A DNA stretch of 64,000 nucleotides from Tissierellales bacterium (GTDB lineage: Bacteria; Bacillota; Clostridia; Tissierellales; JAOAQY01), in NCBI GenBank assembly GCA_025210965.1, contig JAOAQY010000072.1, forward strand, positions 9,837 to 73,836. Direction: 5' to 3'. Made by a program: the position numbers and the translations under genes. Within the stretch, counting starts at the first letter, position 1. The number at the start of each line of letters is the position of its first letter. The notes beneath the pieces are model-generated. The model searched no databases. It worked only from the letters and a program-made list of their open reading frames with translations, and had not been told where the DNA came from. Below are positions 3,546 to 33,957 of this stretch, one piece after another.

Positions 3546-3550
3546 AAAAT

Positions 3551-4470: not shown

Positions 4471-4473
4471 CGC

Positions 4474-5334: not shown

Positions 5335-5349
5335 CACTCTGCCTCTCAT

Positions 5350-8205: not shown

Positions 8206-8212
8206 TAAGATT

Positions 8213-8275
8213 AAAAAAGGGACTCAAATTGAAATTTCACATTAACTGAAACTTCAATTTTGAGCCCTCTTTTTA
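8213..8275. terminator. Bidirectional intrinsic terminator (htpG / cas6-like convergent pair)
   Basis: Long imperfect hairpin AGGG(A)CTCAAATTGAA...TTCAA(T)TTTGAGCCCT, with an A-run on the 5' side and a T-run on the 3' side. Confidence 0.75.
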
Positions 8276-8299
8276 ATTAAAATCTAAAAACTCTATTCT

Positions 8300-8998: not shown

Positions 8999-9126
8999 AT
9001 CTTCACCTCAATTATTATTTACTACTATATCATTTTATTCCTTTTATACTTTTCTTTCAAGTTTCTTTACAATCTTTAAATCATTGTAGTATACTCTATA
9101 CAGTTAATACAAATATTAGGAGGTAT

Positions 9127-17000: not shown

Positions 17001-19412
17001 TTATTTAACTACTATATTACATATCTTACCTGGAACATAAATTTCTTTAACTATCTGCTTTCCTTCCAGATGCTCTTTTATCTTTTCATCAGCTTTAACT
17101 GTAGCCAATACAGTATCGTGGTCAGCATCCTTGTTTATGTTAACTCTACCTCTCACTTTACCATTGATCTGAATTGCCATTTCAATGATGTTCTCTACTG
17201 TTTTCTCTTCTTCGTATGTTGGCCATTTTGCTTGATTTAGCATTCCTTCAAACCCAAGTACTTCCCATATCTCTTCTGTCATATGAGGTGCAACTGGATT
17301 AAGCAATGTTATAAGCGTCTTATACTCTGCTTTATTAATTTTGCCATGTGCATTCATATCGTTAACAAGCGCCATCATCGCTGCAATTGCTGTGTTGAAT
17401 TTAAGTTTCTCATAATCAGATGATACTTTCTTTATAGTTTGGTGCATTCTGGTTTCTAGAGCCTCTGAATAAACATCACCATCTTCAACTATTTCCTGCA
17501 ATCTCCAAACTCTATCTAAGAATTTACGACAACCTCGAACTCCATTCATAGACCATGGAACCGCCTTCTCAAAGTCACCTATAAACATTTCGTAAGATCT
17601 AAGAGTATCTGCTCCAAATTCTTCTACTATCTCATCTGGATTTACAACATTTCCTCTAGATTTAGACATTTTTTCATTATTTTCACCCAAAATCATACCA
17701 TGAGATGTTCTCTTTTGATATGGTTCTGGAATAGGTACCACACCATAGTCAAATAAGAATTTATGCCAGAATCTAGAATAAAGCAAGTGAAGAGTTGTAT
17801 GTTCCATTCCACCATTGTACCAGTCAATTGGTAACCAATATTTAAGCTTTTCTTCTGACGCAAGTGCTTCATTGTTATCTGGATCAATATATCTTAAGAA
17901 ATACCAAGATGATCCTGCCCACTGAGGCATAGTATCAGTTTCTCTTCTAGCTGCTTTACCACATTTAGGACACGTAGTTTGAATCCATTCCTCCATCTTA
18001 GCAAGTGGAGATTCTCCGTTTTCAGTAGGCTCATAGCTATCTACTTCTGGAAGCTCAAGTGGCAATTCCGATTCTGGAATTGGCTGCCATCCACAGCACT
18101 CACAATAAACTAGTGGAATTGGCTCTCCCCAGTATCTCTGTCTAGAGAATACCCAGTCTCTTAATTTATAATTTGTCTTTTTCTCACCAATTCCTTTTTC
18201 CGATAAAAATTCTGCAATTTTTACTTTCGCTTCATCTACACTCAATCCATTCAATATGTCTGAGTTAATCATAGTTCCTGTAGCAATATCAGTAAATGCT
18301 TCCTCTTCTACATTTCCGCCTTCTACAACTTCAACTATATCTAAATCAAACTTTTTAGCAAATTCCCAGTCTCTAGTATCATGTCCTGGTACTGCCATTA
18401 TAGCTCCTGTACCATAACTCATAAGTACATAATCAGAAATCCAAACCGGTATTGCTTTTCCGTTTACTGGATTTGTTGCAGTAATTCCTTCAATAGCAAC
18501 ACCAGTTTTTTCTTTAACTAACTCGGTTCTTTCAAAATCAGATTTTCTAGCTGCAAAATCCTGATATTCTTTTATTGCATCCATATTTTTTATTTGATCA
18601 ACATATTTTTCAAGTATTGGATGTTCTGGCGATATAACCATGTAAGTAGCTCCAAATAATGTATCTGGACGAGTAGTATATACAACCAATGTCTCATCTA
18701 CCTCATTTAGCTTAAATTGAACTTCCATACCAGTAGATTTTCCTATCCAATTTTTTTGCTGAATTTTTACCCTATCTATATAATCTACTAAATCTAAATC
18801 TTTTATAAGTCTTTCTGCATATTCTGTAATTTTAAGCATCCATTGGCTCTTTACCTTCTGAACTACTTCTCCACCACATCTCTCACAAACACCATTTACA
18901 ACTTCTTCGTTTGCCAATCCTACTTTACAATCCGTACACCAGTTGATAGGCATTTCATTCTTGTATGCCAATCCTTTTTCAAATAATTTCATGAATATCC
19001 ACTGTGTCCACTTATAGTAATTAGGATCTGTTGTATTCACTTCTCTATCCCAATCAAATGAAAATCCTAATGATTTCAATTGTTGCTTAAATCTAGCTAC
19101 ATTGTTTTCTGTAACTATTCTAGGATGTATTTTATTTTTGATTGCATAGTTTTCCGTAGGTAAACCAAATGCGTCCCATCCCATTGGATAAAGTACATTA
19201 TATCCTTCCATACGTCTCTTTCTAGCAACAATATCAAGTGCTGTATACGGACGTGGATGACCTACGTGAAGTCCTTTTCCCGATGGATATGGAAATTCAA
19301 TAAGTGCATAGAATTTCTCCTTATCAAAATCATCTGTTGCTCTAAATGTTTTATTCTCATCCCAACGGTCTTGCCATTTTTTTTCTATTTTTTGTGGAAA
19401 ATATGTCTCCAT
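17001..19412 (-). CDS. leuS: Leucyl-tRNA synthetase
   Basis: HIGH motif (GKGLHVGHP), KMSKS motif and a CP1 editing domain. 803 aa. Confidence 0.97.
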
Positions 19413-19490: not shown

Positions 19491-19736
19491 AAAAAAGAGC
19501 CCTATCATCTTTAGAGACGATGGGCTCGCGGTACCACTCTAATTGACACTTAAAATTTAAGCATCCACTTAATGACTATAACGGAATCACCGGCACAAAC
19601 TAATAATTTCATCTGCACAGCTCATAGACGAGTTCAGAAACTAAGCATGCTACTTTTCACCAACCAATAGCTCTCTAAAATACTCCCATTTCCTACTACT
19701 TCTACTCACAGCTTTTCTCTACTGCTTAGCATTATA
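19491..19736 (-). promoter_or_regulatory. T-box leader (Leu) with terminator/antiterminator, preceded by an extended -10 promoter
   Basis: The minus strand carries the T-box AATTAGAGTGGTACCGCGAG (about 19522-19541). The terminator is GAGCCCATCGTCTCTAAAGATGATAGGGCTC plus a T-run (19491-19527). Stem I elements AGTA, AGAGAG and GGTGAAAA are present. The candidate specifier is CUC in GAA-CUC-G (19630-19632); the alternative is CUU at 19643-19645. TGATATAAT lies at about 19731-19739. Confidence 0.9.
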
Positions 19737-19766
19737 TCAAATATCATCAAAAAATAAAAGAGTCTA

Positions 19767-22376
19767 TTATACTTTTTTATTTTTATTTCTAATCAATTTA
19801 TCTATATCCAAGTCAGTTTCACTATTTACATCTTGATTTTTCAACTCTAAATCAGCTATCTCTTCTTTATTTTGTCTTTCATAAATTTTGCGTTTGTCAG
19901 TTTTTCGTATATAAACATCTACTAGCAATAATATCAAGAATATAACTAAAAAATACCGCCAAAGTTCCTTGTACTCTGTTTTCCTAAATTGTTCTTTGCT
20001 TTCAAACTCATCCGAACTTTTTAATTCTTCTCCACCAATTTGCGATAGATAAAATCTAAAATTATCTTCATTTCTAATTGTCCAGTCGTATTCTTTAGAA
20101 TATTGAGTTACAAAATTATAGTCTATAGTTTTGTTTTCCTTATCTCTAGCTATTAAACTGTAAATATATCCATCACCTTTTTTAAACTCTATTTCCCAAC
20201 CATCAACACTTTTTTTAGTCATAATTGGATATTCTTGACCACTTTGGTCAATCAATTTAAATTCGTAATCTTCTTCATCAGATTGTCTATATACTATAAT
20301 TTTATGATTTAATCCCATAGATTTTTCATCAAATTCTAACTTTTGTTGATTTTTCTTTAATACCTCATTTATAAGTTTAAGATAAAAAATTCGTCCATTC
20401 TCAGCTTTCAAATACTGCTCATTCCACATGCCGTCAAAATCAGAAGTCCATGCATAAACATTTCCAATACCATAATTCCAATATGCTAGCACAGGCTCTT
20501 CTTCATCACTCTCCATTATCAAACTAGCTCTAGGTTTTATAGTAGTGGATACATAACCATTTAGTAAAAGTGGTTCTTCTATTAATCCGCTTACAATTTC
20601 ATTTGCAGAAACTATATTAGGATAAAAAACTCTATTATTTAAATATCTATCTGCCATCATCGCTGTTTCTTTTGTAAATATCTCTGGCAAATTCAAATAA
20701 TTATCTACCTTGTAAAAACGTCCACCTGCATTTCTTGCTAAAAAATTAAGCAACCTATTGTCAGCTCCTTGACCAATTCCAAGTGTAGTCAATGTAATTT
20801 TTTCATCCTTTAAATTCTTCAGTACTTCTCTGTATCCATCCTGTTCTGCTTGTCCATCAGTAACCAATATTATGTGCTTATGCTGAACATTTGAATCTTT
20901 CAAACTTTCATATGCCGATTTTAAAGCTGGAATTATACTAGTTCCACCCTCTGCATCTATAGTCCTTATTTTACGCTTTATCTCTTTTGCATCTTGAATA
21001 TCTCCTACAGGTACTACCCACTTTCTACTATCCGAAAATGAAAGTATTCCAATTTGATCGCCTGGCATCATACTATTTATAGCTTTTGCAGAAGCTTCTT
21101 TTGCTACCTCAATTTTTGATTTACCAAGAGAATCTCCCATCATAGAACCTGATTGATCAATAACTATAACCAATCCCATTTTTTCTAATATATTCTTTTG
21201 CTTTTTCTCCATACTTACTGGTAGTAGTTCCTCTAATTTTGTCTTATAATATCCACCAAGCGCATAGCTATTTTTGCCACCTGATACTAACAATCCTCCA
21301 CCATAGTCTCTTAAATAAGTTTCTAAATTATCTAAGAATTTTTTATTCAAATTCTCAAGAGAAACATCTTCGAATATCACCGCATTGTAATTTAGCAGTG
21401 AATTTAATTCTAGCGACAACTTTTCTGGTGTTTTTATATCAACACCAATTTCATTTTCATTCAATAGTTTTTCAAATTGTTTTAGGTCATTTTCATTATC
21501 TTTAATCAATAAAACTTGAGCTTTCCCATCTATTTGAATAATTTTTCTGTACTTATTGTTTATTACTTGCTCATCATCATCTACTTCTATTACTGCCTCT
21601 ATCACATTTTGACCAATTTTATTTGAATCAAATTCTCGAGTTAAAACACTATTTCCTTCTGGTATTTTTACCAATTGCTCTTCAATTAGCTCATCATTAA
21701 CATATATTTTCAAGAATCCTTCCGTATCGTAATTGCTCTCTACTAAAACTGACAACTTATAATCTTGATTCTCAAAAATTCTATTTGGCCCTACTATATC
21801 AGAAATTTGAACATCTTTTTTTATTGCTATTTCGTATGGCAACCAATAGACATTAGCTTTTTTTATTTTTAATTTCTGAATAGTTCTAAGGACATCTCCT
21901 TCATTTTCTACTCCATCACTCAATATCACTATATTAGCACCTAACTCATCTTCAAGTTCGCTACTAATCATATTAATTACGTTCTCATAATTCGTCGACG
22001 ATTCATTTACATTTATTTGACTCAAATCTATGCCTTCAAAGTCTCCTGTTTTATTCATCGCTACAATTGAATCTGAACCAAATGACACAATCTTATACGG
22101 CTGATCTTGTGGTAATTTTTCAATCATATTTTCTAAAGCTTCTTCAATACTAACTCTATTATATTTTTGGCTATATGATTGATCTACAGCAAAATACACC
22201 GGTACTTTTTCAGACTTTGACATCCATTTTATATTAAGCCCAGCTAATAGTACTAACACTATCAATACTGCTCTCGAAATCGAATGTAACATGGGTATAT
22301 TTTTCTTGCTAGCATCTACTATAATCATAAAAATAACTATCAATGCTCCTAATATCATTAAAGCATTAGCGATCAT
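19767..22376 (-). CDS. Large membrane protein with two von Willebrand A domains and a GATase1-like middle domain (BatB/DUF1355-like)
   Basis: N-terminal TM pair and a C-terminal TM. MIDAS motifs VDQSYS and IDQSGSMMG. The segment YLRDYGGGLLVSGG is GATase1-like. The start overlaps the upstream stop by 11 nt. Confidence 0.7.
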   Translation of the reverse strand: MIANALMILGALIVIFMIIVDASKKNIPMLHSISRAVLIVLVLLAGLNIKWMSKSEKVPVYFAVDQSYSQKYNRVSIEEALENMIEKLPQDQPYKIVSFGSDSIVAMNKTGDFEGIDLSQINVNESSTNYENVINMISSELEDELGANIVILSDGVENEGDVLRTIQKLKIKKANVYWLPYEIAIKKDVQISDIVGPNRIFENQDYKLSVLVESNYDTEGFLKIYVNDELIEEQLVKIPEGNSVLTREFDSNKIGQNVIEAVIEVDDDEQVINNKYRKIIQIDGKAQVLLIKDNENDLKQFEKLLNENEIGVDIKTPEKLSLELNSLLNYNAVIFEDVSLENLNKKFLDNLETYLRDYGGGLLVSGGKNSYALGGYYKTKLEELLPVSMEKKQKNILEKMGLVIVIDQSGSMMGDSLGKSKIEVAKEASAKAINSMMPGDQIGILSFSDSRKWVVPVGDIQDAKEIKRKIRTIDAEGGTSIIPALKSAYESLKDSNVQHKHIILVTDGQAEQDGYREVLKNLKDEKITLTTLGIGQGADNRLLNFLARNAGGRFYKVDNYLNLPEIFTKETAMMADRYLNNRVFYPNIVSANEIVSGLIEEPLLLNGYVSTTIKPRASLIMESDEEEPVLAYWNYGIGNVYAWTSDFDGMWNEQYLKAENGRIFYLKLINEVLKKNQQKLEFDEKSMGLNHKIIVYRQSDEEDYEFKLIDQSGQEYPIMTKKSVDGWEIEFKKGDGYIYSLIARDKENKTIDYNFVTQYSKEYDWTIRNEDNFRFYLSQIGGEELKSSDEFESKEQFRKTEYKELWRYFLVIFLILLLVDVYIRKTDKRKIYERQNKEEIADLELKNQDVNSETDLDIDKLIRNKNKKV

Positions 22377-24030
22377 ATCTATATACCCCCCACTCTAAAA
22401 TTAATATGAAAAATAATAGTATCAATAACACATACCTATAATTCTCAAAATACTCTCCATTTGTAGCATTAGTTTCACCTACTACAGCCTCACTTTTGTA
22501 ATTTAAACCCTTTTTTTCTTCTTGTGAATCCAAATTTACCGCTATAGTTCTAGTTATATCCATACTATTTTCATCGTATATCCCTGGATTTTTTAGAACT
22601 ATACTATTATCATAGTATTCATCTACTACAAATTGCTTTTTGCCTATCTCCTTATCTCCTAATAGCCATGAAATACTATTTTTCATTAATATAGGAAATT
22701 CTTTCTTTATCATCAAATCACTATCGTATAAATCAAAACCAAACCTCAGAACATTTAGACTTTCTGTTTTTTTACCATATGCAATTAAATTTTGTCCAGA
22801 ATACATAAGTGGCAGAACATCATTTGTATTTTTAAAACCTTTTGCACTCATTAAGCTAAAACTAGGCTCAATATATTCAAATACGCTATTATCCGTTAAT
22901 CTATAACCCTTACTAATATCAATATTATCTTCACCATTATTTTCAAATATTAGGACAGCACCTTTTTCAAGCATCTTCTCTGGAATTTCACCAGAAAAAA
23001 CATATAAGTCATAGCCTCCTATTAAATTATTCTCTTCACTTCTTGTAACTTTTAATTTTTTCTGTACTGATAATGCCTTATCTAGAAAATCATTTTCATC
23101 TCCTAGAAGCAGTACCTTTATTTCTTCCATATTTGACTCCGTGAAATAATAAATATTGTCATCATCATACAAATCTTTTTCTCTTATTTTAGCTACGCCA
23201 AATTCAAATGGAATATCAATATCAAAAGTTTTAAATAATCGCTCTTCTGCATTTAACTCTATATCTATACTATATTGACTTTTCCCATCAACTACTATAT
23301 CAATCGTTTTCTTTGCTGAATTATTACTATAATTTTTAACTTCTATTACTATATTATTTTTTTCAATCTTCATATTTTCTATTCCGACATTATCAAAAAT
23401 TTCTTGTCCTTTTGTTACTAAACGTATCTTATCAGATAATCCATTGTATTTTTGGTCGCTGTAAAACCAAATTTCGTCAATGTCTTTACTCAAAGCTAAT
23501 TGATTTAATTCTTCTACTGTTTTTAATTCACTTCTGCTTGAATTACTTCCCTTTATATCTACAAGTTTTCCTCTAAAACTAACACTTCCTAATTTACCTT
23601 TTTCAATTTCTTTTATTTCACTATCAATAGCATATAGCATAATTTCTTCGCCATTTTTAAGCTCACTTAATTGATTTAAAATCTCTTTTTTTGTTACATC
23701 TAGCCGCGTTTCTTCGCCATCAGCTATATTCATGCTATATGAAGTATCCATTACTATAGCCTTAACTATATTTTCACCATTAGTTCTTAAAAATATTGGT
23801 TCTATAAGAATAAATGATACTAGTAGAATCATAAATATTTGCAATAAAAGAGGCAAACTACGCCTTAGTTTATTTAATTTTTTACTCGCTTTTTGCTCAT
23901 TTAGCACTTCTTCCCACAAAAAATTACTTGGAAATATATTTAGCTTGTCTTGTCTAATCAATTTATGAATTATCAATAATGGTATCAAACTAAGTAGTGC
24001 AAATGCAAAACTTGGATATAAAAATTCCAT
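22366..24030 (-). CDS. BatA-like protein (aerotolerance-regulator N-terminal domain + vWA-like domain + C-terminal TM)
   Basis: The N-terminus MEFLYPSFAFALLSLIPLLIIHKLIRQ is typical of BatA_N. MIDAS-like MDTSYSM. C-terminal TM LLILLFFILILEWGVY. Confidence 0.65.
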   Translation of the reverse strand: MEFLYPSFAFALLSLIPLLIIHKLIRQDKLNIFPSNFLWEEVLNEQKASKKLNKLRRSLPLLLQIFMILLVSFILIEPIFLRTNGENIVKAIVMDTSYSMNIADGEETRLDVTKKEILNQLSELKNGEEIMLYAIDSEIKEIEKGKLGSVSFRGKLVDIKGSNSSRSELKTVEELNQLALSKDIDEIWFYSDQKYNGLSDKIRLVTKGQEIFDNVGIENMKIEKNNIVIEVKNYSNNSAKKTIDIVVDGKSQYSIDIELNAEERLFKTFDIDIPFEFGVAKIREKDLYDDDNIYYFTESNMEEIKVLLLGDENDFLDKALSVQKKLKVTRSEENNLIGGYDLYVFSGEIPEKMLEKGAVLIFENNGEDNIDISKGYRLTDNSVFEYIEPSFSLMSAKGFKNTNDVLPLMYSGQNLIAYGKKTESLNVLRFGFDLYDSDLMIKKEFPILMKNSISWLLGDKEIGKKQFVVDEYYDNSIVLKNPGIYDENSMDITRTIAVNLDSQEEKKGLNYKSEAVVGETNATNGEYFENYRYVLLILLFFILILEWGVYRYDR

Positions 24031-24034
24031 ATAG

Positions 24035-24880
24035 TCACCTCAATATTCCTTCTTTTATAAACTCTTGAAAAAATACATATTCGATATCTTTCTCTAAATT
24101 TGGCTGTACTACTTTATAGCCATACTTCTTTATTTCATTCTTCAATGCATTTTCATGTTCCCTAAGCTTCTCTAAATACAAATCCCTTGTATTTCTATTC
24201 ATTTCAACCCTTATTTCCTCATCAGTTTCTGAATCTCTTAACTTTATATTCCCAGTCAATGGTATCTCTTTTTCATTTTGACCTAATGTATACACTAAAA
24301 TCAATTTACATTTTTTATACTTAAAATATTTTATGATTTCAGACATTTTATCTGTATAGCAATCTGATATTATTATAATCAGCTCTTGTCTCTTTACACT
24401 AGATTTAAGCAACTTAGGTAAGAATTCTTCCTTGTTTAAGTCACTCTCTTCAAGCTCAAATTTAGTTATTTGAGCTTTACTTCTCATTATTTCACTTTGC
24501 AAAGTTTTATTTAGGTGGTTTTTGTGCCAATGTACTTCATATCCTTGATTAAATGCTATATACGCTAGACCCTTTGCTATTTCAACTGATTTTTCAAGTT
24601 TATTTTTATCGCCCGCGCACATAGATGCAGAATTGTCTAGAAATATGTTTGCTTTAAGTTTTTTTTCAGCTTCATAATGCTTTATATAAAGTTTTCTAGT
24701 TCTTGCAAATATATTCCAATCAATTCTTCTAGTATCATCTCTAGGTTCATAGCTACTATACTCTGAAAACTCAAGTGATTGACCTTTACTCCTGGTATGC
24801 ATGTTTCCTTCATGCGCTGATGTAATATCCTTTATCGAGTTGTTTATTTTTAATTTATCTAAAGTCCTATAATCTAGCAT
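24035..24880 (-). CDS. DUF58-family protein (MoxR-associated vWA-like)
   Basis: KGQSLEFSEYSSYEPRDDTRRIDWNIFARTRKLYIKHYEAE...FLDNSASM matches the DUF58 signature. It overlaps the moxR stop by 14 nt. Confidence 0.8.
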   Translation of the reverse strand: MLDYRTLDKLKINNSIKDITSAHEGNMHTRSKGQSLEFSEYSSYEPRDDTRRIDWNIFARTRKLYIKHYEAEKKLKANIFLDNSASMCAGDKNKLEKSVEIAKGLAYIAFNQGYEVHWHKNHLNKTLQSEIMRSKAQITKFELEESDLNKEEFLPKLLKSSVKRQELIIIISDCYTDKMSEIIKYFKYKKCKLILVYTLGQNEKEIPLTGNIKLRDSETDEEIRVEMNRNTRDLYLEKLREHENALKNEIKKYGYKVVQPNLEKDIEYVFFQEFIKEGILR

Positions 24881-25877
24881 TTTCTTTCGCTTCTTTCAAT
24901 ATTTCATCAACTAATTGATCCGCATTTACATTTTCATGAATAGCTTCATAATTTAATATTATTCTATGTCTTAGTACATCTGGAGCTGTCTTTACAATAT
25001 CATCAAATGATACATTGTATCTTCCATCCAATAGAGCTCTCACTTTAGCTACTTTTATCAATGCCTGCGCTCCACGAGGACTTGATCCAAAAGAAACAAA
25101 TTCTGAAACTCTAGCCAAATTTTGGCTTGGATGCGTTCCCAATACTACAGCCATAGCAAAATTCATAACTTCATCCGCTATTAATATTTTTTCCGAAAGT
25201 TCTATGGCCTCAGTTAAAAATCGTTCTCCATCAAATGTTTCTAAATTAACCCTATCATTTGTAGTTGTTCTAAGAACTATATCTTTTAGTTCATCATGCG
25301 TCGGATAATCTACAAAAAGTTTAAATAGAAATCTATCTAATTGTGCCTCTGGCAATGTATATGTGCCTTCCATATCTATAGGATTTTGCGTAGCTAATAC
25401 AAAAAATGGTTGGTTTAATATATACGTCTGTTTTCCAACAGTTACCGTTTTTTCTTGCATTGCCTCTAATAGAGCACTTTGCGTTTTAGGTGTTGCTCTA
25501 TTTATCTCATCTGCTAATATTAAATTTCCGAATATAGGCCCTTTGTGAAATTCAAAATTCATTGCTCCACTTTTTTCAGTCCGTATAAGATTCGTTCCGA
25601 TAATATCTGATGGCATCAAGTCAGGAGTAAATTGTATTCTAGAAAAATCTAAATTCATAATCTGACTTATCGTCTTTACCAAATAAGTTTTTCCAAGACC
25701 CGGATTACCTTCTAATAATACATTTCCTCCACAAATCATAGCTATTATGACATTTTCTATAAGATCATCTTGGCCAACTATAGCTTTTTTTATTTCATCT
25801 TTAAGCCAGCTTGCTTCTTCTCTAATTTGTTTAATTCTATCTTCACTCATATTTTTTATACACTCCTTATTATTCAT
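24867..25877 (-). CDS. MoxR-family AAA+ ATPase
   Basis: Walker A GNPGLGKT, Walker B ILADEINRA, PEAQLDRF, and the C-terminal SPRG..AL lid typical of AAA_3. Confidence 0.9.
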   Translation of the reverse strand: MNNKECIKNMSEDRIKQIREEASWLKDEIKKAIVGQDDLIENVIIAMICGGNVLLEGNPGLGKTYLVKTISQIMNLDFSRIQFTPDLMPSDIIGTNLIRTEKSGAMNFEFHKGPIFGNLILADEINRATPKTQSALLEAMQEKTVTVGKQTYILNQPFFVLATQNPIDMEGTYTLPEAQLDRFLFKLFVDYPTHDELKDIVLRTTTNDRVNLETFDGERFLTEAIELSEKILIADEVMNFAMAVVLGTHPSQNLARVSEFVSFGSSPRGAQALIKVAKVRALLDGRYNVSFDDIVKTAPDVLRHRIILNYEAIHENVNADQLVDEILKEAKENARL

Positions 25878-27234
25878 CTTCTGAAAAATAATCTTGAACT
25901 AAGTCTCTAACTTCCAAAGGTATTTCATCGTCCGATGATGCATTCCATTTGACTTTGTCTCCATACTCTTCAAGTATTTCTTTTGACTTAATTTCTCCTG
26001 CTTGACCGCTCATACCATACCACTCTACTATCCAAGGCTTTTCATCCTCTAAATTTTGTCTTTCTGATTTTGCATTTTTAATTTCACTTTCAGAATTCCC
26101 TAGCTCAGATTCCGTTCCTTCTATAAATTCTTTTTCTCCTGTATCAAATATTGATGCTCCATCGCCTTTGCCTGAACTACTTCCATTTGAAGATCCATTT
26201 CCATTTTGAGCAGAACTTCCGCCATTTGATGATCCTCACGTTCCGCCTTGATTTTGTCCATTTTGTGAATCAGTTTGACTACAGCTAGATGAACTTAATT
26301 CTTTTTGTAAATTTTTCATTATATTCTCTAAAGCCTTTGGATCAATATTTTTTAGAAGCTCTTTTAAACTATCTTGCATTTTTGATAAATTCTGTAAGTC
26401 CTTTAGTAATTCATCATTAAGTTGATATTTTTCTAATACTGATTGTAAATTCTCTAAATTATCTAGCTTAAGTAACTCTTCTAGCAATTTACTCTGCTCA
26501 TTCATCCCTTCTGTTTTCTTTTTCAAAGCATCTTGCGTTTTTCTTATCATATCTTCTAAGCTTTTCTTTTGCTTCTCAATATCTTTTTTATAATCTTTTT
26601 TAACATTAGACTTTTTGAGTTCTTTTTTGGTTTTATCCAATGCATTCATAATATCTTTTTTTAATTGATTTTCCAGTTTCATATCTTGAATCAACTTTTT
26701 ATTATCATTTATCTCTTTTAATACTTCTTTTTTTATTTCACTTGCTGCTTCGATTTTATTTATCTGTGCATTGTGAAATGGCGGCACAAATAAAACTATC
26801 AAAAGCACAACTGCTGCAATACTTATTTTTAAAGCCTGCTCTTTGTACCAAAAAATGATAGGTAACTCTTTTTTTATGTCTATACTCGCTACATAACTAA
26901 TAGCATCTTCTCTCTGCATAATTGAAAGCTCATCTTCCATATCCTCATGCTCTAATGCAGTAATTAGTCTTTGCTTATCATCCAATTTTAGAAGTGAATA
27001 CTTCCATGTTTTCTTAGTCTTTAAAATCGAAAATACAATCATAATTATAACTAGAAAAAAATATAGTACAGTTAATTTATTTACTACAAAAATAATGGGT
27101 ACTATTTTTGAACCCATTATCATTGTAATAGTGATTATCACTCCTATAAACAAGATGTTATATATATTTGAATTTATTTCGTTAACTAAATTGATAAACT
27201 TAATTCTTGAAATAATATCCTTTATTTGCTTCAT
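25870..27234 (-). pseudogene. Coiled-coil membrane protein interrupted by an in-frame TGA (332 codons + TGA at 26236-26238 + 121 further open codons)
   Basis: My hand translation shows the frame stays open for 121 codons after the TGA (GSSNGGSSAQNGNG...IPLEVRDLVQDYFSEDE). That stretch has no usable start codon. It ends in a TAA (25870-25872) that overlaps the moxR ATG (25875-25877). The N-terminal part has 2-3 TM segments and a long K/E/L-rich coiled coil. Confidence 0.6.
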
Positions 27235-28076
27235 TTTATTCTACCTCTATTTTTAAATGGATTTATATTTTTAGTCGCAGCCCATATAAAAAATCCTGAA
27301 AGAATTAGCTCAGCGAATAGATTCATTACAAGCGTAAAATTAGCAGACCAATCTAAGTCAGTTATTGCATTTATAAAATTAAATGACGATCCCATTTGTT
27401 CTGACAAAATAGCTGATAAACCCGTTCCTGGATTAAATATCAAGAATACAGCATGCAAATTTTTAAATTCGTTAAAATCAAACAACTCGTATCCAATTGC
27501 AATTAAAATAAGCATTCCGAAACTTAAAATAAATATGATCACATAACTGACAACTATTGATGGAACAGTACTTTTAAACTGTGTAGAGCAAAAAAGACCT
27601 ATACTTCCAAGCAAAACCGATGTAACCATAAAAAATATAGTCAGTTTAAACAAATTTGTCACACTAATGCCACCAAACATGAAAAGGCAGCTTAATATTG
27701 GTAATGCTAAAATCAAAAGCATGAATGTTTGTAATAAAGAAGCCATCAATTTTCCAAGTATAATTGTTCTATTAGATGCTCTATTACAAATCAACAAATC
27801 AAATGTTCTCCTTTGCTTTTCACCGCTTATAGCACTTGCAGTTGTTGCTGGAACTAAAAGTCCTATCAAAAATATCTGAATTATAGCACAAGTTATATAA
27901 AGTCCTTGTAATACCTCTGGTGAAAAACCACCTCTATATCCAAAATCAAATTCGGCAGTTTTAAACACTACCACCGCTGCAAAAACCAGTACTAGAGCAT
28001 ATAATGTAATCATTCCTGCATTTTTCCAATTTCTTGCGCGTACTTTAATCTCTTTTTTTAAAACTGGATTAATCAT
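27231..28076 (-). CDS. ABC-2-type transporter permease
   Basis: 281 aa with six hydrophobic segments. The N-terminus MINPVLKKEIK...W is typical of ABC-2/GldF/NosY-like permeases. ATGA overlaps with the downstream gene, and there is an 8-nt overlap with the ATPase gene. Confidence 0.7.
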   Translation of the reverse strand: MINPVLKKEIKVRARNWKNAGMITLYALVLVFAAVVVFKTAEFDFGYRGGFSPEVLQGLYITCAIIQIFLIGLLVPATTASAISGEKQRRTFDLLICNRASNRTIILGKLMASLLQTFMLLILALPILSCLFMFGGISVTNLFKLTIFFMVTSVLLGSIGLFCSTQFKSTVPSIVVSYVIIFILSFGMLILIAIGYELFDFNEFKNLHAVFLIFNPGTGLSAILSEQMGSSFNFINAITDLDWSANFTLVMNLFAELILSGFFIWAATKNINPFKNRGRIK

Positions 28077-28998
28077 ATTCTTCCCCCTTGGTCACTTTCA
28101 TGAATATATCCTCTAAATTTTGGTCTGTATTTCCAAAATTTACTATTGAAATATTCGCTTTCACAATATCCTTTAACAACTCAGATTTTTTTTCATCGCT
28201 CCCGTTAAATTCTACTGCAAATTCATAGTCTCTATTCTGTACTTCAGTAATATAAGGATTCTCTCTCAATATAGTTTCCAATTCTTCAACTTTATTTAAA
28301 GTCTTTATCCTAACTATATTATTTTCTCCAGCAGAATTAATTATCCCATCTACACTATCCCTAGTTATTATCTTTCCGCGCTCTATTATTCCTATGCTAG
28401 TACATATCTCAGCTATTTCTGGAAGTATGTGCGAACTAATAATTACAGTTTTCCCCATCGATTTAAGCTCTTTAAGTATATTTTTCATGTGAACTCTAGC
28501 TCTTGGATCCATACCAGATGCTGGCTCATCTAGTATTAATAGTTCTGGATTATGAATAAGTGCTCTAGCTAGACATAGTCTCTGCTTCATACCTCTTGAA
28601 AGCGCATCTACATATGCATTTTTTTTCTCCGTAAGACCTACTAACTCTAATAGTTGATCTATTCTCTTATTCAATTCTTTTTCTGGAACTTTGTTCAAAT
28701 CCCCATAGAAAGTCATATATTCTTCAACTTTTAAGTCATTATAGACTCCAAAAAAATCTGGCATATATCCAATTTGACTTCTAACTCCATTTAAGTCTTC
28801 ATTTAAATTTCTATCATTTATCCATATTTCTCCACTTGTCGGTTCTAGTAGCGTTGCAATCATTCTCATAGTAGTAGTTTTACCCGCACCATTTGGACCA
28901 ACAAAACCAAATATCTCTCCTTTTTTTATTTCCAAATTTAAATTATCTACTGCTATAAAATTTCCATATTTTTTAGTAACATTTTTCAATTTCAACAT
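28069..28998 (-). CDS. ABC transporter ATP-binding protein (ABC-2 subfamily, with C-terminal extension)
   Basis: Walker A GPNGAGKTT, signature LSRGMKQR, Walker B LLILDEP, H-loop SSHIL. Confidence 0.9.
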   Translation of the reverse strand: MLKLKNVTKKYGNFIAVDNLNLEIKKGEIFGFVGPNGAGKTTTMRMIATLLEPTSGEIWINDRNLNEDLNGVRSQIGYMPDFFGVYNDLKVEEYMTFYGDLNKVPEKELNKRIDQLLELVGLTEKKNAYVDALSRGMKQRLCLARALIHNPELLILDEPASGMDPRARVHMKNILKELKSMGKTVIISSHILPEIAEICTSIGIIERGKIITRDSVDGIINSAGENNIVRIKTLNKVEELETILRENPYITEVQNRDYEFAVEFNGSDEKKSELLKDIVKANISIVNFGNTDQNLEDIFMKVTKGEEYD

Positions 28999-31139
28999 TA
29001 GTTCACAACCCCCTGAACTCTAATTTCTGGAAGGCTCACAGAATCATCAACATTTGAATTTATTTTCAGCACTATAGTTTTGTCTTCATCCATATATTTA
29101 TCTATGTCTTCACTATTTAAAATTTTTCCATTTTGGATATCTTCCCAATTATTTTCTTTAATATTAAATATTTGATAATTTGTTCCCTGACTTTCATCTA
29201 AATAAAATTGCCACTCATTAATATCAACGTCACTCTCAACTTCTCTATAGTGTATTTCTGCACTTCCTACACCATATAGATAATCTCGCCTTGTATCATA
29301 CTCCAAACCATTTACATTTTTAACCTCAACAACGAGCAAATCAGTTGACCCTGTCACTACACTTCCCTTTTCCATTTGTATTTCTCCAAATGAATAAATC
29401 ATATTTCTATTAAGCTGATTCATTTCCTTTCCATTCATCATCGAACTAAAATCTAGATTTTCCTCATTCCAAGCTACAATTATATAGTTTCCAAACCTTT
29501 TTTCACTTGATTTATATTTAGAATCGAAAAATCTATTTGAAAAGCTTTGTTTAAAGTCTTCTGTCAAATAATTTTTTTCATTATTCTCACTTGTATCTAT
29601 TCCCTGCGATTCTAAATACTTAGATCTTTCATCTGAATAATAGAGATCACTTATTTCTATGTCACTCCAATTAGTTTCTTTTCCTCTTTTCAAATCTATT
29701 TCTACTATTTTTTCCTCACCAACTCTAAGATCTCCTAAAAACACTATTGTTTTATCAAATACAAATACCATATCCTCTAGCAAATATCCAGTTTCATTCT
29801 TTATAATACCTCTAATAGTGTTATCTTCTAATTTCAATTCAGTATTTATATTTCCAATACTATCGGTTTCCCAGTCAATTGGTATTGTTGTTGGTGACCA
29901 AAAACCATTGTTTTTATACTTTAGAGTTTTTTGCACAATATTGTTAGTTACAAAAACATTTTCCTTATTTTTATTAAAATCATATGCTCTTATTTTCCCA
30001 TAATTTACTTTCACATCGTTTAAAAATTCTAAAATACACTCATTCTCTGTAGTCGCAAAGATCGAACTAGAACTGCTAATTTTGGCAACATTACTATTAG
30101 GATTTAATTCTACATATGATGCCTTACTCATAACAGGACCTTTAAGCTCTGTATTAGAGCTAATTGCGTATACTCCTATAGAAAAAACTAAAACTATAGC
30201 TGGTACCGATATCCACAAAAATTCTCGTCTGTCAATCTGCTTCAATACCAAGTAATTCACCGGACCTACAACTACTACAAAAATCATCAATACTATCTTT
30301 AGTAAATCAAACTTTGGTGCTAATTTAGCCGGTATAGTCGCTGTGTACCAATCACTATACCAATATCTATCATTATCATTTGAAACTACTTTTCTATCTT
30401 TAAGTAGTTCATTTATCATATCTATACTATTGCTATCAATCTCAGAGTAATTCGTATTTGCTAATCCTATATTATTTTCTGCCCACGCTTTACTACGACT
30501 ATCAACTATAAAATAGCCTCCACTATTTCGCCATTCTTTCAAGTAGTCAATTTGCTCGTTTGTCAATTTGTTAACTTCATTTGACAATATAATATATTGA
30601 AATAGATCAAGAACTTCTTTATTTATTATTTTATTGTTTTCTAATTGTATAAGATTACCATTTAATTCTCTATATTGTTCTACTGATTCTGCAATAACTC
30701 CGATTTCACCATATCCAGCACTCTCAGAATATTCCTCATTGAACCATGATTCGCTTTTTTCAAAAATAATATTCCCATTGTTATCAACTATTTTCACTAC
30801 GTATTCGTTAGTCTCTGGTTGTTCTGCATAAATAGGCAGTACTATTTTCTTGCTTGAATTTTGAGGCAAATTAAGATTTTCTTCATATTTTAAAAATCTT
30901 GGATCGCGTTCATCTTCGTAATTTACATACACTTCTACTTTTCCATCAAAATCCTTACCACTATTTGTTATATCTATACCAAATGGTATAACTTCATCAT
31001 GCTTTACAAAACCAGAAAAACCAGGTTCTATCTGAACTAAAAACCCGCTACTTGCTATTACTGATGTGCTTATTACAAAAAAAACTATCATAATTAAAGC
31101 ACTGACTAAAATACTATTTTTTTTCACCCTACTCGACAT
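28998..31139 (-). CDS. Large membrane protein of unknown function; N-terminal ectodomain with a GATase1-like/DUF4350- or GldG-like flavour
   Basis: Start set at ATG 31139, 5 nt after AAGAGGAGGG. Signal anchor ILVSALIMIVFFVISTSVIA. LTNEQIDYLKEWRNSGGYFIV resembles the auxiliary components of ABC-2 systems. A TM pair sits in the middle (IVLMIFVVVVGPVNYLVL / LWISVPAIVLVFSIGVYAI). The C-terminal domain of about 370 aa is unassigned. Confidence 0.5.
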   Translation of the reverse strand: MSSRVKKNSILVSALIMIVFFVISTSVIASSGFLVQIEPGFSGFVKHDEVIPFGIDITNSGKDFDGKVEVYVNYEDERDPRFLKYEENLNLPQNSSKKIVLPIYAEQPETNEYVVKIVDNNGNIIFEKSESWFNEEYSESAGYGEIGVIAESVEQYRELNGNLIQLENNKIINKEVLDLFQYIILSNEVNKLTNEQIDYLKEWRNSGGYFIVDSRSKAWAENNIGLANTNYSEIDSNSIDMINELLKDRKVVSNDNDRYWYSDWYTATIPAKLAPKFDLLKIVLMIFVVVVGPVNYLVLKQIDRREFLWISVPAIVLVFSIGVYAISSNTELKGPVMSKASYVELNPNSNVAKISSSSSIFATTENECILEFLNDVKVNYGKIRAYDFNKNKENVFVTNNIVQKTLKYKNNGFWSPTTIPIDWETDSIGNINTELKLEDNTIRGIIKNETGYLLEDMVFVFDKTIVFLGDLRVGEEKIVEIDLKRGKETNWSDIEISDLYYSDERSKYLESQGIDTSENNEKNYLTEDFKQSFSNRFFDSKYKSSEKRFGNYIIVAWNEENLDFSSMMNGKEMNQLNRNMIYSFGEIQMEKGSVVTGSTDLLVVEVKNVNGLEYDTRRDYLYGVGSAEIHYREVESDVDINEWQFYLDESQGTNYQIFNIKENNWEDIQNGKILNSEDIDKYMDEDKTIVLKINSNVDDSVSLPEIRVQGVVN

Positions 31140-31261: not shown

Positions 31262-31316
31262 AAAATACAATATATATCTAAATTTCTTTGACTAAAATAC
31301 ATATATATTGTATTTT
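31262..31316. promoter_or_regulatory. Perfect 16-bp inverted repeat flanking a TTGACT box in the divergent control region
   Basis: AAAATACAATATATAT (31262-31277) and ATATATATTGTATTTT (31301-31316) are exact reverse complements. The 23-nt spacer contains TTGACT. Confidence 0.6.
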
Positions 31317-31338
31317 AATTATAAAAGGAGGCTTTTTC

Positions 31339-31773
31339 ATGTCAACTTCATTAGAAAAAATAGATTTAATAAAAAATCGTACACATGTATCTTATGCCGT
31401 TGCTAAAGATGCTCTAGAAAGAAACAACAATGATTTAGTTGAAACACTAATATATCTAGAAAATAATAATTTAATTATCAATATTGAACAAATAGGATAC
31501 AATCAAAAAAAACAAACATCTTTTATGAAAAAATTAAAGAAATTCTTATTATCATATACTATTGTCACAAATAGGAAAAAGCAACGTATCTTTCAAATGC
31601 AAACAATTCTGACTTTAATTATTATTGTATCTTTATTGCCAGTTTCCATTCCGTTTCTAATAATTACCTTACCTATGAAACAAACTTGGGATTTTGTAAG
31701 TCTTGATTCTATAGAACCTTTAGCTGAACCTGAGGACGATAATAATGATTCAAAAGATATAGATAACCAATAG
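31339..31773 (+). CDS. Small membrane protein with UBA/EF-Ts-N-like N-terminus (DUF4342-like)
   Basis: ATG 31339 lies after AAAGGAGG. The N-terminus IDLIKNRTHVSYAVAKDALERNNNDLVETLIYLE is UBA/TS-N-like. It has a central hydrophobic segment and an acidic tail. Confidence 0.45.
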   Translation: MSTSLEKIDLIKNRTHVSYAVAKDALERNNNDLVETLIYLENNNLIINIEQIGYNQKKQTSFMKKLKKFLLSYTIVTNRKKQRIFQMQTILTLIIIVSLLPVSIPFLIITLPMKQTWDFVSLDSIEPLAEPEDDNNDSKDIDNQ

Positions 31774-31813
31774 TTACCTTTCAAAAATAATTAATTCAAA
31801 AGAGGGATTCAAT

Positions 31814-32506
31814 ATGAATACAAATATTCTCATAGTAGAAGATGAAGTCAAAATAGCACGCTTTCTAGAACTCGAGCTAAACCATGAAGGCTATTGCATA
31901 ACTACTGTATTTAACGGTAGAGATGGATTAGAACAAGGCTTGTCTAATCAATATGATATGATACTTCTAGACGTAATGCTTCCTGGTCTAAATGGTATGG
32001 AAATCTGTCGTCGCATAAGACAAAAATCTGATATTCCCATAATAATGCTTACTGCAAAAGATGACACCATGGATAAAGTAATGGGGCTTGATTTTGGTGC
32101 AGATGATTATGTAACAAAGCCATTTGAAATTGAAGAATTATTAGCACGTATTAGGCGAACACTTCGTCATATAAAAACTTTAGATTCTGATTCTCAATCT
32201 TCAAAATTACTTTGCAGGAATCTATCGCTTGACGACTCTAGGCACATAGTTACGTACAACAATTCAGAAATTCAATTGACTAAAAAAGAATACGATTTAT
32301 TGCAATATTTAATGATAAATAAAAATATGGCATTATCTCGAGATCAAATACTTGAAAATGTATGGGGATTCGATTTTGTTGGTCAAACAAATATAGTTGA
32401 TGTGTATATACGCTATTTGAGAAGTAAAATAGATGATGTATTTCATGTAAAACTCATCGAAACTATCCGTGGCGTCGGCTATATCATGAAGGATAGTAAC
32501 AAATGA
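31814..32506 (+). CDS. OmpR/PhoB-family response regulator
   Basis: REC domain (ILIVEDE, ILLDVMLPG, TKPF) plus a winged helix (LTKKEYDLLQYL, RGVGY). Confidence 0.92.
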   Translation: MNTNILIVEDEVKIARFLELELNHEGYCITTVFNGRDGLEQGLSNQYDMILLDVMLPGLNGMEICRRIRQKSDIPIIMLTAKDDTMDKVMGLDFGADDYVTKPFEIEELLARIRRTLRHIKTLDSDSQSSKLLCRNLSLDDSRHIVTYNNSEIQLTKKEYDLLQYLMINKNMALSRDQILENVWGFDFVGQTNIVDVYIRYLRSKIDDVFHVKLIETIRGVGYIMKDSNK

Positions 32507-33957
32507 TTCTAAGTATTATAAAACAAATCATTCGGATTATATTGTGGCTCGTTTGGGCACCATTTAGATTTATCTCTTTTACATTTTCTAAAATATGTAA
32601 TTTACTAAGATTTAATATTTCTTTTAAGCTAACTTTGTTTTTTGCTATTTTAATTCCAACTTTACTAGTTATAGAAAATCTATACTTATTAAATTATGCT
32701 CATTCAAGTTACTTCGACTCAACTTACACTCAATTAGTAAAATCGAGTGATTATTTGCATGATTTAGCAAAAGCTATAGATTTAGATCAAGAAACAATTG
32801 AAAAATACGCATACCATAATACTTTAGATGTTTATGTATACGATAAAAATGGTACTCTACTAAATTCTTTTGTTCAAGATAACTCTCTATATGACAACCC
32901 TTCAGATGTCTATAATTTGAGACGTGGTTTTGGCCTTGAAGAACAATTATTATTTGGATTTGACTTACCATCTATAGTAAAACTAAATGTTTACTATGAT
33001 GACTTAGATATTATCCTTGTTATGCCATTTTTAAACCAAAAGAATTCATTTCAATCATTGATTTTTTTATCAGTATTTTTCAATTTTTTCCTCATATTGT
33101 TAGCAATACTGCTTAGCAACAAAATGAGCCGAAAACTTTTGAAACCTATAAAAAATATGACAGCAACAGTACAAAATATAAGCATAAGTAATATTGATGA
33201 GAGGATAAACATAAAAGGTACTAAGGATGAGTTAAAAGATTTAGCTCTCACATTCAACGATATGATGGATAGACTTGAAACATCATATGTAAAGCAACGC
33301 CAATTTGTAAATGATGCGTCACATGAACTCAGAACTCCCATCGCAGTTTTGAAAGGTTATGCCAATATGCTAAATAGATGGGGTAAAAAAGATCCTCAAA
33401 TTTTAGAAGAAAGTATTCAATCCATAATAAGTGAAACAAATCAAATGCAAAGCCTTGTAGAAAAATTACTATATCTAGCGCGAAATGACAAAAATTCTTT
33501 AAAACTCGAAAAAAATAATTTTTCTATGAATGTTTTAATCGAAGAAGTTTTTCAAGATATGGAATTAATAGATCAGAATCATAAATATTTTTCTAAAACT
33601 AATGAACATATAGATTTCTATGGCGATAGAGTAGCTCTAAAAGAAGCAATCAGAATATTTATGGATAATAGTATGAAGTATACACCTGAAAATGGTAGCA
33701 TCTATTTATCAACTAAATCATCTAATAAATCCATCTTTATCTCAATCGCTGATAATGGAATTGGAATCTCAAAATCTGACCTGCCGCATGTTTTTGAAAG
33801 GTTTTACCGTGCTGATAAATCTAGAGCTAAATCAATGGGCGGCACTGGATTGGGATTGTCAATTGCAAAAATAATAATAGAACAGCATAGTGGAACTATT
33901 TGGATTGATAGCATTGAAAACGAAGGTACAATAGTAACTATAATATTACCGCGTTAA
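32503..33957 (+). CDS. HAMP-domain sensor histidine kinase
   Basis: Two TM segments, a HAMP domain, H-box ASHELRTPIA, and boxes DNGIGI and GGTGLGLSIA. It overlaps the response-regulator stop by 4 nt. Confidence 0.92.
   Translation: MILSIIKQIIRIILWLVWAPFRFISFTFSKICNLLRFNISFKLTLFFAILIPTLLVIENLYLLNYAHSSYFDSTYTQLVKSSDYLHDLAKAIDLDQETIEKYAYHNTLDVYVYDKNGTLLNSFVQDNSLYDNPSDVYNLRRGFGLEEQLLFGFDLPSIVKLNVYYDDLDIILVMPFLNQKNSFQSLIFLSVFFNFFLILLAILLSNKMSRKLLKPIKNMTATVQNISISNIDERINIKGTKDELKDLALTFNDMMDRLETSYVKQRQFVNDASHELRTPIAVLKGYANMLNRWGKKDPQILEESIQSIISETNQMQSLVEKLLYLARNDKNSLKLEKNNFSMNVLIEEVFQDMELIDQNHKYFSKTNEHIDFYGDRVALKEAIRIFMDNSMKYTPENGSIYLSTKSSNKSIFISIADNGIGISKSDLPHVFERFYRADKSRAKSMGGTGLGLSIAKIIIEQHSGTIWIDSIENEGTIVTIILPR

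Follow-up and report, generated by a model that had tools for sequence, protein, structure and literature searches.

Why should the genes of an ABC-2 exporter and those of a MoxR-DUF58-vWA module follow one another in a single row? The question arises in a 64,000-nt stretch of DNA from a Tissierellales bacterium (GenBank assembly GCA_025210965.1, contig JAOAQY010000072.1, positions 9,837 to 73,836), hereafter the window, along whose full length all coordinates are numbered. Eight co-directional genes on its minus strand, g1 to g8, span 19767-31139 in the open reading frame (ORF) listing. Neither MoxR-DUF58-vWA ('Bat') clusters nor GldG-type ABC-2 systems have a mechanistic explanation, widespread as both are. 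An earlier note on this DNA had proposed that the AAA+/vWA machinery and the exporter act together on a cell-envelope substrate, which is a reasonable proposal. It missed an in-frame TGA in g4. The locus as a whole is, on balance, best explained as a conserved envelope operon in which the UGA of g4 would be decoded as selenocysteine (Sec).

Gene order was compared in about 74 related loci (L005, L006 and L008; L010 and L011; 14 GTDB genomes; L026, L081 and L082; and 52 metagenome loci). Scanning of the GTDB species representatives with the g1 alignment yielded at least 14 loci, and scanning of metagenomes with the N-terminal domain of g4 yielded 52 further ones. The order g1-g8, mapped by blastp in the GTDB loci, is identical in 74 of 74 loci as far as each contig reaches, without a violation: a large ectodomain membrane protein, an ABC ATPase, an ABC-2 permease, a coiled-coil membrane protein, MoxR, DUF58, a BatA_N/vWA protein and a double-vWA protein. 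The earlier note had made its proposal depend on the ABC and MoxR modules being adjacent in more than this one genome, and in all of these loci they are adjacent and in the same order. The loci represent Tissierellales, Clostridiaceae and Lachnospiraceae, together with gut and marine metagenomes. Those from GTDB include Tissierella creatinophila DSM 6911, Proteiniborus, a Tissierellales metagenome-assembled genome (MAG), Clostridium ihumii AP5, Mobilisporobacter, several Lachnospiraceae and a Eubacterium; Crassaminicella profunda, Paramaledivibacter caminithermalis and the Logan contig L026 have the same order. Among the 52 metagenome loci, all eight genes are found in 25, g3 and g5 flank g4 in 41, and the order is broken in none. 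Protein identity to the window is 21-57% in L005, L006 and L008, contigs that were found from distant g4 homologues. The Logan contig L010 (g1 53% identical) is a closer relative with which the window also has flanking genes in common; it is the only close relative of the window locus among the matches listed, and the GTDB loci listed include none from the window's own species. In two loci, a Eubacterium MAG (L025, 16713-21053) and a metagenome contig (L075, 8552-11960), g7 and g8 form a single fused protein of over 1100 aa.

The genes that flank the eight-gene block vary between lineages, and the block is therefore a conserved unit rather than a product of shared flanks. All g4 homologues examined sit in this cluster. 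Only two very distant g1-like proteins lie outside it, P0012 (Candidatus Poribacteria bacterium) and P0011, and they match only around the transmembrane (TM) hairpin. Because the order is invariant in every locus, the ABC-2 and MoxR/vWA modules appear to be functionally coupled. The alternative is that the two halves are independent, an ordinary ABC-2 exporter beside a Bat-like MoxR/vWA system. Each half does exist separately in other bacteria, the former as GldAFG and the latter as Bat and YeaC-YeaD-type systems, and the two g1-like outliers stand apart from any such cluster. L006 also carries a separate MoxR-DUF58-transglutaminase trio (943-5418) directly upstream of its eight-gene cluster, which resembles the MoxR-DUF58-transglutaminase clusters of Bacillus (yeaC-yeaD-yebA) and actinobacteria. 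Independence is, however, hard to reconcile with an order kept in 74 of 74 loci even where identity falls to about 21% and the flanks vary, with a g4 that is always between the halves and found only there, with the overlapping junctions of the window, and with the presence of a homologous module in g1 and g8. We consider it very unlikely, and have little doubt, on comparative grounds, that the eight genes constitute one conserved operon and one functional unit. The fusion of ABC-2 and MoxR/vWA modules in an invariant operon points to physical cooperation between them, and provides a fixed parts list of eight proteins.

In the window the junctions are tight. g1 and g2 have one base in common at 28998 (TAATG), while g2 and g3 overlap by 8 nt (28069-28076), g3 and g4 by the ATGA at 27231-27234, g5 and g6 by 14 nt (24867-24880), and g7 and g8 by 11 nt (22366-22376); g6 and g7 are separated by a 4-nt spacer (24031-24034, between 24030 and 24035). 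All of these coordinates, and the placement of the set on the minus strand, had been given correctly before. As for internal terminators, of which the earlier note had seen none, the cluster contains five terminator-like sites against 2.6 +/- 1.7 expected in shuffled sequence, which is no excess. The remaining junction, between g4 and g5, had been placed at 25870-25877. This placement, and with it the count of eight genes, holds only if the TGA in g4 is decoded, since g4 as a plain ORF ends earlier. The start of g5 is more probably the ATG at 25850, which is preceded by an AAGGAG ribosome-binding site and gives a 327-aa product, the length in most homologues examined; no ribosome-binding site is found ahead of the alternative start at 25877. 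With a start at 25850, g4 and g5 lie 19 nt apart and do not overlap. Other lineages carry junction spacers of 10-110 nt. Translational coupling is thus a trait of the window genome and not of the family, and this counts against the single-unit reading.

What kind of gene is g4? As a plain ORF it runs for 332 codons to a TGA at 26236-26238 (minus strand), and the same frame is open for 121 more codons to 25870. Read through, it has 454 codons including the in-frame UGA (25870-27234, minus strand), and is predicted to encode three TM segments with a cytoplasmic loop of 63 aa, a coiled coil outside the cell, a linker rich in Gly, Ser and Asn, and the conserved C-terminal motif IPLEVRDLVQDYF. The TGA, a candidate Sec codon, stands in the context C-x14-GGT-TGA-GSS at the boundary between coiled coil and linker. 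Six loci, representing about five lineages, have a TGA at this boundary: beside the window these are L010, L018, L026, L081 and L082, among them the loci of C. ihumii, C. profunda and P. caminithermalis. The frame that follows is open for 120-150 codons to the C-terminal motif in all six. Between the window and L010 the part after the TGA is 59% identical, which is above the upstream part, and has a dN/dS of 0.28 at a dS of ~0.9, indicating purifying selection; stops after the TGA number 0 in the g4 frame versus 7-16 in the other two frames. There is no in-frame ATG, GTG or TTG between the TGA and the conserved block. Because the tail is selected, is in frame in six loci and has no start codon ahead of its conserved block, the UGA is very likely decoded.

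Several ways around decoding were considered and rejected. Reassignment of TGA (code 4 or 25) is ruled out by its use as an ordinary stop in the window, where 8 of 51 ORFs, g3 and g6 among them, terminate in it at lengths seen in homologues. An assembly error or a recent pseudogene is ruled out, since the TGA recurs in four independent JGI assemblies, in a contig from a coral metagenome with a product 98% identical, and in a relative that is 50% identical. The coral contig (L009; ENA ERZ922785, coral metagenome SRR1822516) is a variant of the g3-g4 region of the window. Re-initiation after the TGA is ruled out by the lack of an in-frame start before the conserved block, the 46-aa ORF at 26121-26261 being in another frame. 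This small ORF, called 3' of the TGA on the minus strand, is spurious; a second one, at 25870-26013 (47 aa, minus strand), is the g4 tail read from an internal Met. Other recoded genes were looked for in the window and none was found, and a metagenome scan with the post-TGA tail gave no matches. Those carriers of TGA-type g4 that have a name, among them C. profunda (CP082326.1), P. caminithermalis DSM 15212, Brassicibacter mesophilus and C. ihumii AP5, are for the most part Clostridia of marine or hydrothermal origin. No tRNA gene was found in the 20-64 kb stretches covered per TGA-carrier genome.

The family to which g4 belongs is large. Word-indexed homologue searches for g1 and g4 returned 5-7 proteins only, and family size became visible by a full HMMER search, which gave 378 cluster representatives at E<=1e-30 with the g4 profile. 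Nearly all members are continuous proteins of 470-600 aa, typically ~520 aa. They have a common architecture of three TM segments, a cytoplasmic loop with D-x-x-G-L-x-E-R-x-x-T-x-L-E, a long coiled coil and a Gly/Ser/Asn/Gln-rich linker, and end in the conserved motif (I/L)P-x3-(K/R/Q)-(D/E)-(I/V)(I/V)-(K/R/Q)-x-YF. The few short representatives, all from named and cultured organisms, stop after GG(T) and are annotated as hypothetical. Short g4 proteins also appear as 'FlhF' (JGI) or 'SbcCD ATPase', names that are coiled-coil artefacts. g4 has no match in Pfam (E<=0.01), and neither g4 nor its homologue P0005 has one in NCBIfam (E<=1); in particular, there is no DUF4175/TIGR02302 match. To judge from these searches, g1 and g4 are families without a curated model, found almost only in this cluster among the homologues examined.

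Does the UGA encode selenocysteine? A Cys lies 5-14 residues from the TGA at six of six sites, with the spacing C-x5-14-U or U-x9-C. Homologues P0023, P0032, P0112, P0128, P0158 and P0159 have Cys pairs (C-x2-8-C) at the same coiled-coil/linker boundary, a low-complexity region in which column homology is uncertain. Examples are 'CPTGEHSGEGG-TGA' versus 'CPTGSSSGNC', and C-x5-UGA in C. ihumii versus C-x5-C in T. creatinophila. A hairpin resembling a Sec insertion sequence (SECIS), GGCGGA-AGU-UCUGCU, lies at 26209-26223 (minus strand) in the window, its loop starting 19 nt after the UGA. Hairpins are found at six of six sites, with a stem of 5-7 bp, a loop of 3-6 nt with G in the first two loop positions, and a start 19-22 nt after the UGA; the loops are AGU, GGU, GGA, AGGGU/GGG, GGUC and CGGGAA, and the stem sequences vary by lineage. 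The bacterial SECIS (bSECIS) model calls for a loop of 3-9 nt, a stem of 4-16 bp, G in the first two loop positions, a distance of 16-37 nt from the UGA and a minimum free energy (MFE) of <= -7.5 kcal/mol (PMC13188914). All six g4 sites fit the geometry and five of the six the MFE. The same geometry is seen in a positive control, the fdhA gene of L005 (3-1988, TGA at 354), whose CARL-U-HSP site is followed by a 6-bp stem with a GUU loop at +20. This formate dehydrogenase alpha gene was called as two ORFs, and shows Sec use in a related Tissierellales-like lineage.

How specific are these hairpins? At other codon positions of 54 family genes the same criteria are satisfied in 2.5-4% of cases, and in codon shuffles in 1.6-3.5%. 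Because the criteria were post hoc, a within-gene comparison was added, in which the MFE of the codon plus 48 nt was ranked against all other positions of the same gene. By this measure the TGA sites are among the 1.4, 4.1, 9.6, 2.8, 25 and 5.7% most structured positions, giving a Fisher combined p of ~4e-4 (hand calculation). Shuffle z-scores of the 69-nt folds are not significant alone, and the positional comparison was used instead.

Several observations weigh against Sec. The hairpin criteria were set after the hairpins had been seen. The Sec/Cys alignment falls in a low-complexity region, so that residue-level homology is uncertain. Most g4 family members have no Cys at all at the TGA boundary, and the Cys/Sec residue is therefore not essential to core function. 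An Rfam search around the g4 TGA gave noise only, with no SECIS family match. Sec in an extracytoplasmic, probably disordered linker is also unusual.

Some of these facts suit another explanation, namely that the TGA is decoded without Sec, through near-cognate or suppressor readthrough (as Trp or Cys, for example), or is a true stop, the 332-aa product being functional and the tail a relic or separately translated. TGA is, after all, a normal stop in the window genome and the surrounding sequence has no Rfam SECIS match; gene callers and NCBI list the short g4 forms as complete proteins, and most homologues need neither Cys nor Sec at the boundary. A true stop is at odds, however, with a tail that is selected and in frame in six loci, and hence translated, and separate translation with the absence of an in-frame start before the conserved block. 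Leaky termination, for its part, would not be expected to go with a SECIS-type hairpin at a fixed position, or with a nearby Cys and Cys-pair homologues, all of which are expected for Sec. We rate this explanation as improbable, though one to be taken seriously. The UGA of g4 is probably decoded as selenocysteine, and g4 is a well-supported candidate for a new selenoprotein family.

The family is absent from the 119 families/subfamilies of a 2026 inventory (PMC13188914), and in the literature searched we found no selenoprotein tied to MoxR/Bat clusters. With known bacterial Cys...Sec selenoproteins g4 has in common the in-frame UGA, a downstream hairpin that fits bSECIS, homologues that contain Cys, and anaerobic Clostridia as hosts. 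It differs from them in the setting of the site: they have CxxU/UxxC spacing and a thioredoxin-like fold, whereas the g4 site would lie in an extracellular low-complexity linker of a membrane protein.

We turn to the other seven products. g1 (28998-31139, minus strand) is predicted to be a membrane protein with an N-terminal anchor or signal peptide, an ectodomain, a TM hairpin (280-326) and a C-terminal beta-sandwich ectodomain. The 713-aa form proposed in the earlier note is right, because an AGGAGG ribosome-binding site precedes the ATG at 31139 and an orthologue has the same start. The first ectodomain is predicted to combine a beta-sandwich with an alpha/beta fold and to be DUF7408/DUF4350-like. 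Its previous description as GATase1-like and GldG- or DUF4350-like has indirect support only, from homologues: among eight that were aligned and scanned, five match DUF7408 (best 3.8e-8), two DUF4350 (6.7e-5) and one CARDB, with weak matches to ThuA and GATase1_like. The window g1 has no match of its own in Pfam or NCBIfam, and none to GldG/ABC_transp_aux. An AlphaFold (AF2) model built on a seven-sequence alignment (pLDDT 65) has an N-terminal helix, a beta-sandwich (33-131), an alpha/beta domain (146-247, moderate confidence), a TM hairpin (277-330) and an all-beta C-terminal ectodomain, best modelled at 551-712. Foldseek of this model against the PDB gave generic Ig-like/beta-sandwich matches only (TM-score < 0.2), and no functional inference is therefore drawn from the structure of g1. 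In g8, residues ~233-372 are homologous to the g1 module that consists of the beta-sandwich and the alpha/beta domain (hhalign profile-profile comparison, 80%, E 1.4e-5).

g2 (28069-28998, minus strand) is a 309-aa ABC ATPase of the DrrA/GldA-like class (ABC_tran 121.9 bits, DrrA1-3_C 33 bits), and g3 (27231-28076, minus strand) a 281-aa ABC-2 permease with about six TM segments (ABC2_membrane_2 41.7 bits, cut-off 27.2). The NCBIfam models TIGR01188 (259.7 bits) and TIGR03522 (250.5 bits) score g2 under their equivalog cut-offs, and g3 is only weakly GldF-like (TIGR03518). For a GldA/GldF-type system in the strict sense the scores do not reach the equivalog level (250.5 versus 402.6 bits and 25.2 versus 288.5 bits). 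g5 (24867-25877, minus strand, as listed) is a MoxR AAA+ ATPase (AAA_3 208.3 bits, cut-off 27; AAA_lid_2 69 bits, cut-off 22.7). Its DUF58 partner, g6 (24035-24880, minus strand), lies directly downstream; it is vWA-like with a DNSAS motif and soluble, without a TM segment (DUF58 88.4 bits).

The last two genes encode the larger vWA proteins. g7 (22366-24030, minus strand) has 554 aa, with a BatA_N double-TM anchor (BatA 41.8 bits, cut-off 25.9), a divergent vWA domain (DTSYS) in a 450-aa ectodomain, and a C-terminal TM segment; VWA_2 scores 17.3 bits, under the cut-off, and is matched by g7 homologues. g8 (19767-22376, minus strand; 869 aa) has two N-terminal TM segments, a first vWA domain (DQSYS), a DUF7408-like module, a second vWA domain (DQSGS), a GATase1_like region, a C-terminal TM segment and a basic cytoplasmic tail. 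Both MIDAS motifs were located as described before. Pfam places VWA (100.5 bits), VWA_2 and VWA_3 at residues 402-568, with DUF7408 weak at 20.6 bits. The double-vWA assignment of g8 rests in part on relatives: VWA is matched in g8 itself, the second vWA domain is detected in homologues only, and GATase1_like falls just short (26.3 bits, cut-off 27). For g2, g3, g5, g6, g7 and g8, then, the families named in the earlier note (ABC ATPase, ABC-2 permease, MoxR, DUF58, BatA_N and vWA) all score above curated cut-offs.

A match of g5 to bpMoxR (61 bits) recalls anti-phage or conflict systems of the MoxR-vWA ternary type. AAA_3 scores far higher for the same protein (208 bits), however, and no beta-propeller or effector domain is found among the Pfam matches of the eight products. 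The locus is chromosomal, conserved and syntenic with L010, and its neighbours are housekeeping genes, LeuRS for example. Identity as a defence system was rejected, since PADLOC gives generic P-loop similarities only; we attach hardly any probability to it.

Where would these proteins lie in the cell? Topology was predicted from hydropathy and the positive-inside rule. g2, g5 and g6 are predicted to be soluble and cytoplasmic. g1 is predicted to have an N-terminal anchor and a central TM hairpin, which would place both of its large domains outside. In g4 the N-terminus and a basic loop of 63 aa are predicted to be cytoplasmic, and the whole of the protein beyond residue 154, with the UGA site, to be outside. 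For g7 and g8 the prediction is a double anchor of the BatA type, whose cytoplasmic loop is basic, then an ectodomain (450 aa in g7, 757 aa in g8) and a C-terminal anchor; g8 would have in addition a basic cytoplasmic tail of 46 aa. The parts of g4, g7 and g8 predicted to face the cytoplasm are short loops and tails only. In Borrelia, the vWA domain of the BatA-type protein BB0173 has been mapped experimentally to the periplasm (PMC5700661). The predicted outward orientation of the vWA domains of g7 and g8 agrees with this mapping.

Taken together, the eight products may form one membrane-embedded envelope machine with two cytoplasmic ATPases. The ABC-2 pair and g1 would act like GldA/GldF with a GldG-like accessory protein, in export of surface components or in mechanotransduction. 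A MoxR hexamer with DUF58 as adaptor would assemble or remodel the MIDAS proteins g7 and g8 through their cytoplasmic segments, and g4 would join the ABC-2 half to the MoxR/vWA half as a stalk or scaffold. Decoding of the UGA, in the window lineage and at least four others, would be needed for full-length g4, and its failure would yield a 332-aa g4 without the C-terminal domain. The extracellular stalk would thereby carry a Cys...Sec redox (or metal-binding) pair, with Cys...Cys in other lineages and neither in most. One consequence of the topology tells against this scheme: if the vWA domains are outside, cytoplasmic MoxR and DUF58 cannot touch the MIDAS sites directly. The division of labour set out here for g1-g8 is tentative, and we think it unlikely to be correct in full.

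MoxR-vWA pairs have repeatedly been tied to the maturation of metal centres, and this suggests a different task for the same parts. The cluster might be a maturation machine for an extracytoplasmic metalloprotein or cofactor, with the ABC-2 transporter as a mechanotransducer acting on g1 (compare NosFY on NosD) and MoxR/vWA as a metal-insertion chaperone (compare NorQD, CoxDE and CbbQO). g3 falls in ABC2_membrane_2, a family that we take to include NosY, and four MIDAS-type motifs are present. The Sec/Cys pair could bind metal, and Sec may serve as a metal ligand in several transporter-associated selenoproteins (PMC13188914). No candidate metalloenzyme client, however, is found in or beside the cluster in the lineages examined, nor is there a NosD-like beta-helix, the g1 model consisting of beta-sandwich and alpha/beta domains. 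A maturation machine is on this account unlikely, if less so than independent halves or a conflict system.

By its domain content, the cluster is a Bat-like MoxR/vWA system plus a GldAFG-like ABC-2 system, joined by two cluster-associated families without curated models. It resembles the Bat operons of Bacteroides fragilis, Leptospira and Borrelia (BB0170-BB0176) in having MoxR of the AAA_3 family, then DUF58, and MIDAS vWA proteins with a BatA_N double-TM anchor, the vWA domains facing outward, as mapped for BB0173 and predicted here. The likeness to the Bat operon, which the earlier note had drawn, is incomplete. BatC (TPR), BatD and BatE (SH3/TPR) are not among the Pfam matches of the eight products and their homologues; g7 and g8, at 554 and 869 aa, are far larger proteins and contain additional DUF7408/GATase1-like modules as well as C-terminal anchors; and the NCBIfam model of Leptospira BatA scores 30 bits against a cut-off of 380. 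Here, moreover, the operon also includes an ABC-2 transporter, g1 and g4. The GldA/GldF/GldG system of Bacteroidota likewise pairs an ABC ATPase of this class with an ABC-2 permease, and has as accessory a large membrane protein with an extracytoplasmic flavodoxin/GATase1-like domain. g1 differs from the latter in its central TM hairpin and second, all-beta ectodomain. The hosts are Gram-positive-type Clostridia, for which we know of no gliding or type IX secretion (T9SS) apparatus. Alphaproteobacterial MoxR-DUF58-BatA_N clusters contain DUF4175/TIGR02302 proteins that have a g4-like layout of two or three N-terminal TM segments and a long Gly/Gln-rich extracytoplasmic region. Neither g4 nor P0005 matches their models; g4 is half as long, and some g4 members carry the UGA.

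A further parallel comes from archaea. arCOG01314 (DUF4350) proteins, MoxR (COG0714), and vWA and Ig-like membrane proteins have been predicted to constitute a secretion or membrane-remodelling system (Makarova, Galperin and Koonin, 2015; PMC5898192), and the same work links DUF4350 and GldG by HHpred. As in the clostridial cluster, a DUF4350 ectodomain protein, MoxR, vWA and Ig-like proteins are there placed in one predicted operon that is read as a surface machine. In the available part of that source, no ABC-2 ATPase or permease, BatA_N anchor or g4-type coiled coil is among the listed components (PMC5898192). The hosts and sequences are also different, and the archaeal system is itself a prediction only. 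It is the closest published idea. In the literature searched we found no description of the fused ABC-2 and MoxR/vWA arrangement.

The cluster occurs in cultured organisms (Tissierella creatinophila, Crassaminicella profunda, Paramaledivibacter caminithermalis and Clostridium ihumii), and is common in human-gut Lachnospiraceae metagenomes. If Sec is confirmed, g4 would represent a selenoprotein family that is new, and unusual in that a membrane protein carries its Sec in an extracellular linker. Its recognition would correct a systematic mis-annotation, as NCBI/IMG list short 'hypothetical', 'FlhF' and 'SbcC' proteins, and would link the system to redox or selenium status. The fullest form of the proposal is that Clostridia have an undescribed envelope machine, specified by a rigid operon of eight genes and powered by two ATPases (ABC-2 and MoxR), and that its g4 stalk is a new selenoprotein family with a Cys...Sec pair that makes the machine redox-sensitive. 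We hold this to be possible, with somewhat less than even confidence. Were it true, the full-length g4 stalk would depend on selenium supply and Sec decoding, and the redox-sensitive pair would offer a molecular handle on the 'aerotolerance' phenotypes of MoxR/Bat systems.

The surroundings of the operon contain possible control elements. A promoter-like, sigma-70-type site, TTGACA-16-TATAAT, with 12 of 12 matches, lies at 31318-31345 (minus strand), ~180 nt upstream of g1. It is a candidate by consensus only. Its -35 hexamer overlaps the start codon of a divergent gene. The divergent genes (31288-33957, plus strand) encode a small unknown protein, an OmpR-type response regulator and a HAMP histidine kinase. 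L010 has the same divergent regulator arrangement (7168-9801), and in Crassaminicella (L081, 4848-5531) an OmpR-type regulator lies directly upstream of g1. The OmpR-type regulator may be a dedicated regulator of the eight-gene operon.

At the other end, the region 3' of the g8 stop (19767) contains a promoter-like TTGATG...TGATATAAT (minus strand, region 19510-19766) and a T-box leader (136.7 bits, 19718-19510, minus strand) that precedes an 803-aa LeuRS gene (17001-19412). There is no G+C-rich terminator between the g8 stop and the leader, and operon transcripts may run into the T-box terminator. The g8-LeuRS arrangement is also present in L010. Far from the operon, a cobalamin riboswitch (110.6 bits, 191-373, minus strand) is found upstream of a 380-aa ORF (513-1655).

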